DNA of 63,659 nucleotides, counting the filler, from Neolecta irregularis DAH-3 (taxonomy: Eukaryota): assembly GCA_001929475.1 (NCBI GenBank). It is 11 parts of 11 records of this genome, joined end to end, with 100 filler letters (N's around TTAATTAATTAA, not from the genome) between each part and the next. Parts side by side here need not be neighbours in the genome. Positions count along the whole stretch, not along the records: positions 17,098 to 36,446 come from LXFE01000328.1; 10 more parts are not named here. One strand, given 5' to 3'. Positions 19,071-21,898 of this stretch are shown piece by piece. The first letter of the stretch is position 1. Each line of letters starts with the position of its first letter. The position numbers were made by a program, and so were the translations under genes. Under the pieces are notes generated by a model, which was not told where the DNA came from, did no database searches, and saw nothing but the letters and a program-made list of their open reading frames with translations.

Positions 19071-21898
19071 TTATACATCAGCGCCAGCATTTGGATGCAA
19101 AACAAAGACCTTGCGCCGTTCTTCTGAGTCATCTAGTCCTCTCATCTCCATAAAGTAATGGTCCTTGACAAGTCGTCGAATGACCTTTTTGACCAGCTCA
19201 CTTTCAGCAATTAATTCCTCTTCTGTTGAGATCTCATCTTCTTTCGCCTCGAGGTAATACTGAATTAACTCATCTTCATCAACTCCATCACCAGCATCTT
19301 GTTCATCCTGAACAAGACGTTTAGTAAGAACATTCTGGATCGATATGTATTTATCATATGTGACTTTGGTTTTTTGTTTTTGCAGTTCAGAAGTTGTCAT
19401 CTCATTTCGCATTTCTGAATCAGCATTTTGCGGAACGGGCACGGCTTTCGATTCTTCTTCAGGCTGCTCTTCATCGTCGTCCAGTCCGATATCGTCTTTT
19501 TCAACGTGAATGATACTCTGACGAAGGAGATTGTAAGCCTCCCGAACAAAATTTGGAGTGATATCAGAAACGCAGTTCGTACGAGCAATAGCTTCAGATA
19601 ATCGAATCATACTTTCGAGCTGGCGGACGGTAATTCTGTAGGAATTTCTTCCGATACCTTGAGCATCGTCGTTTCGTAGGTCTCGATACTTCTCGACAAG
19701 AAGAACTTGCGCTTCTGGAGTAAACTGAAATTCAGAACACTTAAAAATTTGAGATAAACCTTTGGTTTGAATGTCCTGGCATATCGTATATACCTCTGCA
19801 GTTGCTCTGTTGAAAACTCTGGTTGAATAGCATCATCCGTAAACCGATGAACGTTCACAATGTGAGTGGCCAGATTAGTATCAACGGCTTCATTACACTC
19901 ATCCAAAACCACAAAAAACAAGTCAAACCGACTCATGATGGGGGCAGACATCGCTATATTGGCACGAAGTGTAGTCTTTCGATTGTATCGTCCACTAACA
20001 GGATTTGCGGCAGCGAGAATACTGGTCCTTGCATTCAAGGTGGCATGAATACCAGCCTTTGCAATTGAGATGGTCTGTTGTTCCATGGCTTCATGAATAG
20101 CGACCTGATCAGAAATATCCATCTTGTCGAATTCGTCAATGGCGCAAATTCCATTGTCAGCCAACATTAACGCTCCGGCTTCAATTGTATATTCCCCTGT
20201 TTCTTCATCTTTTACAACCGCGGCGGTAAGACCTGCTGCGCTGGATGCTTTGCCACTAGTATATACTGCCCGAGGTAAGAATCCACATACGTACTTCAGG
20301 AATTGGGATTTTGAAGTTGATGGATCACCGACTATACAGATATTGATATCTCCGCGGAGATTTATTCCTTCAGGCGTAACTTTGTGCAGTCCGCCCATTA
20401 GCTGAAGAAGGATGCCTTTCTTTACAATTTCATGACCATAGACTGTTGGCGCAAGACTGTTGACAAGGCGACCATATATATGATCCGAATGAACCATCAA
20501 TCTGAGATCGTCGAGTTCAGACGGCGTAAGAGAATTGAGAAAGTCATTCTGTTCTTCTTCACCTTGAGTTCCATCTCCTCGGATATCACCACCAGCAGCA
20601 TCTCTTGCTTCAGAAGATTTCGACATGCATGCCAGAAATGCGAGTTTGTACGTCAGGTCTCGAACTCCAAGAGATTTGAGACCTGTAACTCCTTCGCTTG
20701 CAAAACCCTCTCGGCCTCGAGGTGCATTCGTAGCTTCTCGTCTTGCCTCAGCTGTAACTCCAGGAAGACCTAGTTGAGCAACATCTGGTACAACGATGAG
20801 GCAGCCGGTGAATGTACATTTGTCTCCTGCCTTTGCTCGTTCGACGATATCTCCGCGTAAAATGACATCAAGCCCGACGTAAGGGTAAAACGCAAAACGG
20901 GAGTCTTACGTTCTAGGCATACTACCTGTTGGTATTTCGGACGAGTTTTCTTGTATTCGGACTTTTTGCCAATCCATAAATGTCGACTGGGAAATATTCA
21001 ATCGCCAACTCGTACGATTGTTACATGTCTCTGCTGGACACATTGTTGGCTACAGTTTCTTTCAGTCTGAAAACATGAGACATGAAATATACCTCTGTAT
21101 ATTTAAAGACTTGCTCGACGCCGGTGATGACTGCTCGGCATTCTTCGCAAGTAAAAGATGCTTTGAAAAGTTCTGGCCTAACTTCACTTGTTCTAGTAAC
21201 TGTCCCGGATATGCTCATCAATTTTCCAATTCGATCCGTCCGCAAGTCGCGGATTTTGTTGATCTCTGGAAGGTTGTAGAATGCTAGCTGGAAAGAGCGA
21301 TCCATGATTCGAGTAGAATGGGATGTATTCGAGCGCTGCGAAGATGAGCCAGCCGATTTGTAATAATCTGGATCAATTTCTTTGATCAACATATGTAGAC
21401 CCTCTGTGAGAAAAGGAAGAAATCTGAATTGGCTTAGATATTGTATATGACGATACATATACCGATAATATTGGGTGACCACAGCGAGGGCCAAAGTACC
21501 ATTTTCAAACTCGGCAAGATGAGAATAATCAATGAAAATAGTTGTCAAATCAAATTCCTTCAGACCATGAATCTGCATCATATAGTATTTCTCGGGAAGA
21601 GTCGAAGCAGGGTTATTTGGGTCCTGGACCAATTCTTCGTAACTGTCGATCAACACCAGAGCGCCATCCGGTCAGAGTACTTTCGTAAAAATGCCAGAAA
21701 AGCGACTTGAACATGCTGTCCGGTCTCATCTGCCACAGTTGGAATTGCCCGGTCGTAAGGCTGCCTGGTTCTGGGTGGAGGGTGGTGATCTTCATCTCCA
21801 AAGCTGGCCGAAAAAGGCTCTGAGGGTCGCAGAAGATCACTGGATGGCGGTGGAGCATCTCGCTCGGATTGAAGCAGTTGATCAACTAGCGAGGCCAT
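19071..21898 (-). CDS. MCM6: DNA replication licensing factor Mcm6
   Basis: [13 protein letters not shown], zinc-finger Cys residues, [31 protein letters not shown]. Multi-exon. Confidence 0.98.

Follow-up and report, generated by a model that had tools for sequence, protein, structure and literature searches.

A 63,659-nt stretch of DNA from Neolecta irregularis DAH-3 (GenBank assembly GCA_001929475.1), hereinafter the window, carries on the minus strand of its LXFE01000328.1 part the gene for MCM6, an essential DNA-replication gene that encodes a subunit of the MCM2-7 helicase, and the fourth intron of this gene starts with an ordinary GT donor and ends in CGG in place of the canonical AG. 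We confirmed this GG end as genomic and, on the evidence of homology, as obligatory. The reading that we favor, with a probability of about 0.68, is that an A-to-G change at position -2 of an ancestral U2-type intron became fixed and that the major spliceosome continues to excise this intron at CGG, with decay of a loop in the splicing factor Prp18 forming part of the account. The gene and the signals of intron 4 are as follows (positions along the whole window):

19071-21898, minus strand: MCM6 gene, six exons, 878 amino acids with the 36-nt intron spliced (PF00493, PF17207)
21643-21680, minus strand: intron 1, 38 nt, GT-AG, the same in the public model P0001
21424-21462, minus strand: intron 2, 39 nt, GT-AG
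21050-21092, minus strand: intron 3, 43 nt, GT-AG
20874-20909, minus strand: intron 4, 36 nt, GT..CGG, splitting the Thr codon of PR-T-L-D-V-I-L-R in phase 2
20903-20909, minus strand: 5' splice site of intron 4, GTAAGAC, ordinary U2 type, 73rd percentile among the GT donors of the genome
20879-20883, minus strand: candidate branch point of intron 4, CTTAC, with its A at 20880, predicted from sequence
20874-20876, minus strand: 3' splice site of intron 4, CGG, retaining the pyrimidine at -3 and the G at -1, with A replaced by G at -2 (20875)
19725-19759, minus strand: intron 5, 35 nt, GT-AG, excised in a contig of the RNA run X2

Removal of five introns, four of them canonical and the other the stretch at 20909-20874, leaves an open frame of 878 amino acids; as the preliminary description of this DNA had stated, the unspliced frame stops at once and taking out the 36 nt restores MCM6. 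The product combines the MCM OB and P-loop domains and is closest to MCM6, its long exon being 100% identical to the public Neolecta irregularis MCM6 protein P0001 and 83-86% identical to the named MCM6 of other Taphrinomycotina. The same description had proposed a search for an intact second copy, and none was found: the gene is single-copy in the genome, where the other eight of nine matches are at 34-55% identity. Its claim that the intron offers no usable AG likewise stood, since the sole AG between the donor and 20874 is the one within the donor itself (GTAAG), the next, at 20851, is out of frame with the donor, and a gene model forced to use AG ends deleted the MCM6 motif. The candidate branch A lies at -7 from the end and +30 from the start of the intron (genome median +29), and TTTAC, whose A is at 20886, offers an alternative. 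The ordinary donor, the placement of the candidate branch at +30 and the length of 36 nt count in favor of the reading given above.

The end of the intron is fixed by what the protein must keep. An upstream anchor is present in 119 of 120 MCM6 homologs, followed by PxG..PR in 118 of these 119, the sole exception being P0001, and the spacing from this PR to the downstream xR is five residues in 236 of 239 homologs (nine in another one, with two more off the pattern). Only the 36-nt cut leaves five residues between PR and xR; hence, going by this conserved spacing, a cut at CGG is required for a whole protein.

The history of the intron emerges from relatives. Metagenomes scanned with a pattern that did not constrain the acceptor yielded 11 loci (L030-L040) closest to Taphrinomycotina MCM6, and all 11 have a GT-AG intron of 32-46 nt in the same Thr codon, in phase 2, whose branch-like A lies about 6-9 nt before the end. 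Protein-guided spliced alignment, scored with a bonus for AG that did not make AG obligatory, put the window intron and those of seven out of seven of these loci at the same residue. Intron 4 thus has codon, phase, size class and branch spacing in common with the introns of these soil Taphrinomycotina-like fungi, and differs from them in its acceptor, which is AG in all 11, and in the letter preceding the branch A, which in all 11 is a purine. GT-AG introns at the same position in relatives (11/11 by pattern, 7/7 by alignment) point to descent from an old canonical intron that has lost its A at -2. As a separate observation, the Pneumocystis MCM6 model P0018 has four extra residues at the same junction, which suggests that it contains the same intron with a mis-called acceptor.

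The G itself was borne out by reads, which the preliminary description had wanted checked at 20875. A contig of the DNA run X1 spans 18561-22185 (3,625 nt) at a depth of 471, with no other letter and no gap relative to the assembly, so the 36-nt GT-GG intron that had been proposed, with its GTAAGA start and CGG end, is present in both; judged by its acceptor, intron 4 departs in both from the YAG of U2-type introns. The summed depth of the bin containing 20875 is exactly 471, from which it follows that no second X1 contig covers the site. This match excludes an assembly slip and leaves some room for a rare allele, because the assembly may itself derive from X1, and read contigs drop rare variants.

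Run X2 behaves as spliced RNA: intron 5 of MCM6 is cut out exactly (19725-19759), which shows that the gene is transcribed and spliced, and among the 15 of 40 joints listed there are at least 11 clean ones elsewhere on the contig (nine GT-AG, one GC-AG and one GA-AG), the gene-internal joints listed spanning 33-48 nt. Joints at 34749, 34868, 35443 and 35481 were set aside as lying in a repeat region with many differences; the GT..AT joint at 35482-35516, on a contig with many differences (another repeat copy), was left out on this ground. No transcript-derived short fragment of MCM6 above 70% identity was present among the best 120 of 909 matches listed.

To place intron 4 among the introns of the genome, we used a self-trained gene model on 853 kb (window included; ~6% of the genome). 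In its AG-only form it called 1729 introns, of which 1679 are 31-48 nt long and 1652 have their best branch A 7-12 nt from the end; a model on the first 653 kb recovered all nine listed sense-strand X2 joints. It had been suggested that the spliceosome here sets the 3' end mainly by distance from the branch point. The narrow branch-to-end spacing agrees with a role for distance, but "mainly" overstates it, as AG ends make up >98% of modelled introns: when the model was free to use any of the 16 ends at a single penalty, it flagged 15 of 1752 introns as non-AG and 11 as having non-GT/GC donors. Thus, AG is strongly preferred in the Neolecta irregularis genome and only occasionally dispensed with. 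The sensitivity of the model is limited, in that planted end changes were flagged in 123 of 260 cases and exactly placed in 64 of 260, ends not being fixable within codon steps.

Four of the 15 flagged non-AG ends, MCM6 among them, are fixed by homology, which bears out the idea that tolerance of non-AG acceptors extends beyond MCM6. For the TGG, TAT and TCG ends, the basis is that the flanking exons join without gap or overlap when placed on solved or Pfam references. The three further cases, followed by the remaining candidates, are (contigs of the genome, G000):

C2625, 10014-10051, plus strand: adenylosuccinate synthetase, intron end TGG, exons abutting at reference residues 64/65
C3919, 29952-29989, minus strand: argininosuccinate synthase, intron end TAT, exons at reference residues 149/151 with one split codon
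C1235, 60459-60496, plus strand: KTI12, intron end TCG, fixed by homology, with an AG right after the branch passed over
C3066, 28927-28969, plus strand: TMEM63-like gene, candidate non-AG end, leaning by extrapolation to TGG
C2741, 98072-98106, minus strand: ribokinase, candidate non-AG end next to a short exon without a homology match
C1151, 6936-6969, minus strand: helicase, candidate non-AG end with no downstream match
C3174, 20721-20754 and 25925-25959, minus strand: two further genes, candidate non-AG ends flagged by the model

Two of the 15 look like artefacts. Ends of the BG (a non-A letter at -2 and G at -1) or AT class make up 9 of the 15 against an expected fraction of 0.25 (p=0.004), and 7 of 13 once the two likely artefacts are dropped (p=0.024), the class having been taken from the yeast work discussed below after the first list of flagged ends had been seen.

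The same genome has an unusual Prp18 (P0241; locus L011, contig C702), encoded at one locus with an open 320-aa frame. In the 143 of 149 representative homologs without gaps in the loop, a W is present in 143, an H in 142 and an R in 142; here these residues are N, K and K. The N, V, T and V of the loop are also changed and the helices are intact, the decay falling on the W, H, R and the following A-H. Over residues 255-287, 7 of 16 columns that are at least 85% conserved are kept and 9 are lost; outside the loop, 14 of 16 highly conserved columns are kept. None of the 144 other rows lost more than six loop columns and 82 lost none, which makes P0241 the most extreme of 145. Measured instead by plain identity to the 25-residue loop consensus, three of 143 rows are lower and one is equal; hence, other decayed Prp18 loops exist. 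The 15 best-matching homologs all keep W and H-x-R by eye, and homologs of similar length have H-x-R at 274-297. Passages of a 2026 preprint on the human protein place H289 at the docked 3' site and assign the binding of FAM32A to R291 (10.64898/2026.08.05.741260); these would be the H-x-R that is changed in P0241. A search of the genome for FAM32A, made without a positive control, gave no match. Loss of Prp18, Slu7, Fyv6 or U2AF1 was considered and rejected, as all are present. Regarding Prp8, we note that it lies on short contigs (L028 and L029; C2538 and C4303) and on C2568, with at least two extra partial copies that are frameshifted or stop-bearing.

In Saccharomyces cerevisiae, the available passages report, loss of Prp18 or just of its conserved loop raises the use of non-consensus ends, mainly BG and CAU/UAU and often down to 7 nt from the branch; they explain the use of BG by the kept contact between G(+1) and G(-1), and describe substrates with short branch-to-end distances as independent of Prp18 (PMC10711555). 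Under the favored reading, an ancestral ordinary U2-type intron of MCM6 would have fixed the A-to-G change at -2, and the major spliceosome would still remove intron 4 at CGG. With introns of 31-48 nt and a branch nearly fixed 7-12 nt from the end, few ends would be reachable after the first step; in the active site, the retained G(-1) could still pair with G(+1), and loss of the A(-2) contact would cost efficiency without blocking ligation. Short branch-to-end distances would make Prp18 less needed and relax selection on its loop, which is probably how the loop came to decay. The conserved loop lines the 3' splice site channel and in yeast turns away BG and HAU ends; its decay here might then loosen second-step proofreading, such that rare BG and HAU ends become fixed even in housekeeping genes. 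That loop decay is the cause of the tolerance we would put at slightly under even odds. A bolder form, which we entertain tentatively and consider less probable than the causal link, would make this fungus a natural Prp18-loop mutant that has partly shed exon-ligation proofreading and possibly lost FAM32A, sets intron ends largely with a 7-12-nt ruler from the branch point, and for this reason has fixed GG, CG, TG and AT ends as the only sites that yield product in essential genes such as MCM6, the whole genome containing on the order of a hundred such introns.

Several observations weigh against this reading, the first of which concern the place that it gives to Prp18. Over the alpha-finger, Prp8 is almost identical to its human counterpart, and U2AF1 and the U2 snRNA, with its GUAGUA, are ordinary. 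A loop mutant of Arabidopsis PRP18a lowered the use of an AT-AC intron (passages of PMC5873924), and human Prp18 loop mutants, as far as the passages at hand describe them, give retention and distal shifts (10.64898/2026.08.05.741260). GA donors, which also occur in this genome, are not explained by Prp18 and need another cause. A final G, taken alone, shows no enrichment in the flagged set (3 of 9, p=0.12; 10 of 64, p=0.41). Finally, non-AG ends fixed by homology number at least 4 of ~1,750 introns, with MCM6 included by selection, or roughly 0.2-1.8%; the rate is raised but modestly, and is not far above that of Ganoderma lingzhi, where GG, TG, CG and AT ends together come to about 0.1% in the annotation passages (PMC11590231), compared with a fungal average of 0.257% for "other" intron ends (passages of PMC7072748). 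An alternative explanation is that splicing at CGG is a rare exception of the kind that any intron-rich fungus tolerates at normal fidelity, the change in Prp18 being unrelated or compensated. The Ganoderma and fungus-wide figures fit it (GT-GG, with 38 introns or 0.04%, is the third commonest non-canonical type in the curated annotation of the former), as do the mere three further homology-fixed cases per ~1,750 introns and the Arabidopsis result, which runs contrary to a simple Prp18 effect. We nevertheless consider it unlikely: core enzymes and replication genes supplied four obligatory cases in 6% of the genome, the end types match the spectrum of prp18 yeast, and by conserved columns no other of the 145 Prp18 rows has a loop so decayed.

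The remaining points against concern the junction itself, for which a rival end has to be considered:

20862-20873, minus strand: in-frame end CAT (48-nt cut) with a branch-like TTGAT, its A at 20868; four conserved residues would be lost

CTTAC is a weak branch point (7th percentile by score; it is the top choice in 73 of the 1729 introns), the gene model placed the end of intron 4 3 nt off, and out-of-frame BG ends nearby at -4, +1 and +5 have similar model scores. The intron 4 junction is not among the 15 of 40 X2 joints listed. Moreover, if a single contig lies upstream and overlaps by the usual 30 nt, the X2 bin depths translate into a skip of 46-50 nt, in agreement with the 48-nt CAT end but not with 36 nt; a 36-nt skip needs an overlap of 16-20 (one of 18 occurs between two X1 contigs), and retention a gap of 16-20. 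The sum has no unique solution, as several contigs would allow more, and the depth arithmetic weighs against a clean 36-nt junction without deciding the matter. On this ground, one might propose a sloppy junction at which the CGG cut is a minor product, most RNA being retained, spliced out of frame and degraded, or cut at CAT, and the cell living on the remainder. In addition to the single-contig solution and the competing BG scores, such a proposal could draw on the better branch-like motif at -7 from CAT, on the use of HAU ends in prp18 yeast (passages of PMC10711555), and on the fall in X2 depth from 91 to about 35 upstream of 20513, which 3' bias would also give. Against it, the 48-nt cut removes four residues from a stretch of constant length in 236 of 239 homologs and would need a branch at +42, as found in 37 of 1729 introns, and a length of at least 48 nt, as found in 49 of 1729; the depth sum, too, has many solutions with more than one contig. 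We hold this proposal to be a little less probable still than a rare exception at normal fidelity.

An error at 20875, or a G carried by one allele with CAG as the common form, appears improbable. A single change would restore CAG, all 11 relatives have AG, and X1, as said, could share its source with the assembly and hide rare variants; on the other side stand the undisturbed X1 contig with no second contig over the site and three other genes with homology-fixed non-AG ends.

The public protein P0001 avoids the non-canonical end by means of a different intron:

20905-20925, minus strand: 21-nt GT-AG "intron" of P0001, which swaps GSMPRT for 11 intron-coded residues

This cut is canonical and in frame, and the X2 depths could arithmetically accommodate such a skip if the overlap were 1-5. 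It leaves P0001 alone among the 119 anchored homologs without PxG..PR, and at 21 nt it stands apart from the gene-internal X2 joints listed. When introns of 18-27 nt were allowed, the model called only 9-16 of ~1,737, mostly at places flagged as non-canonical, intron 4 of MCM6 included. We therefore judged the 21-nt intron to be an annotation artefact and give it very little chance of being right. Independently of MCM6, canonical "introns" of less than 28 nt in the 853 kb fall mostly at non-canonical sites and are a handy marker of wrong gene models.

That intron 4 is instead of the U12 type, or has its end repaired by RNA editing, can practically be dismissed: CCTTAC does resemble the U12 branch consensus, but the donor GTAAGA(C) is of the U2 type and lacks the extended U12 consensus as generally known, the relatives' introns at this place are U2-type, a search of the genome for U12 snRNA (without a positive control) gave no match, and we know of no G-to-A editing in fungi.

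Departures at the 5' end of introns form a subject of their own. Candidate GA-AG introns of the modelled sequence that start with GAAA are:

C2531, 15740-15776, plus strand: actin-family gene, GA-AG intron, by Pfam spacing with exons abutting at profile positions 99/100
C2625, 27330-27366, plus strand: candidate GA-AG intron, from the gene model
C1151, 21668-21705, plus strand: candidate GA-AG intron, from the gene model

In the window, an X2 contig on the minus strand has a 48-nt GA..AG intron (29565-29612) and a 40-nt GT..AG intron (29398-29437) excised, and thus represents an antisense transcript, spliced from a GA donor, of a phosphate-transporter-like gene on the other strand. A GC-AG intron at 28514-28547, plus strand, is also excised in X2; GC-AG introns account for 79 of 1309 modelled introns (6%) versus 1% in fungi, a figure that is possibly overcalled.

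If the favored account is true, a natural change in one spliceosomal protein would be linked to a change in the splice-site code, offering a handle on how the AG rule of the second step is enforced and how it relaxes in evolution. Should the link to Prp18 fail, the GG end would be a well-supported but ordinary rarity. At the least, the public MCM6 model is corrected, and annotated introns below 28 nt mark mis-called non-canonical sites. A literature search on this genus, outside which most subscription papers fell, found nothing on non-AG ends or Prp18: the text of the genome paper has no splicing passage, with none on odd ends among the places of its supplement listed (PMC5309816), and PMC8476143, in the parts consulted, names the species once, in its methods.

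The closest known parallel is the set of sites used by Saccharomyces cerevisiae upon loss of Prp18 (passages of PMC10711555). These resemble the end of intron 4 in keeping G(-1) and losing A(-2), in their closeness to the branch (CGG, as a BG acceptor, lies 7 nt from its candidate branch) and perhaps in an impaired Prp18 loop, and the TGG, TCG and TAT ends found here belong to the BG and HAU classes of prp18 yeast. The yeast ends, however, are minor errors in an engineered mutant with a competing YAG, whereas the MCM6 end, going by homology, would be the only productive one, fixed in a wild genome, where no in-frame AG keeps the MCM6 motif; unlike in the yeast deletion, Prp18 here is present and otherwise well conserved. 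In its working, intron 4 would resemble both U2 introns and the BG sites of yeast, yet it deviates from YAG and has no canonical competitor. In Ganoderma lingzhi, GT-GG introns occur alongside TG, CG and AT ends as they do here, and are missed by gene finders; the passages on them describe neither an obligatory case in an essential gene nor an AG intron at the orthologous place, and propose no mechanism (PMC11590231). Oikopleura dioica and Eurytemora affinis, with their GA-AG introns, offer a parallel for lineage-level tolerance by the major spliceosome, and GA-AG introns are also cut here; in those animals it is the donor that is affected, at about 3% of supported sites, and in Neolecta the acceptor, at around or below 1% (passages of PMC7072748). 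Set against these systems, GT-GG introns are a known rarity, and what is new here is the GG end in MCM6, obligatory by homology, together with a possible and testable cause in Prp18.
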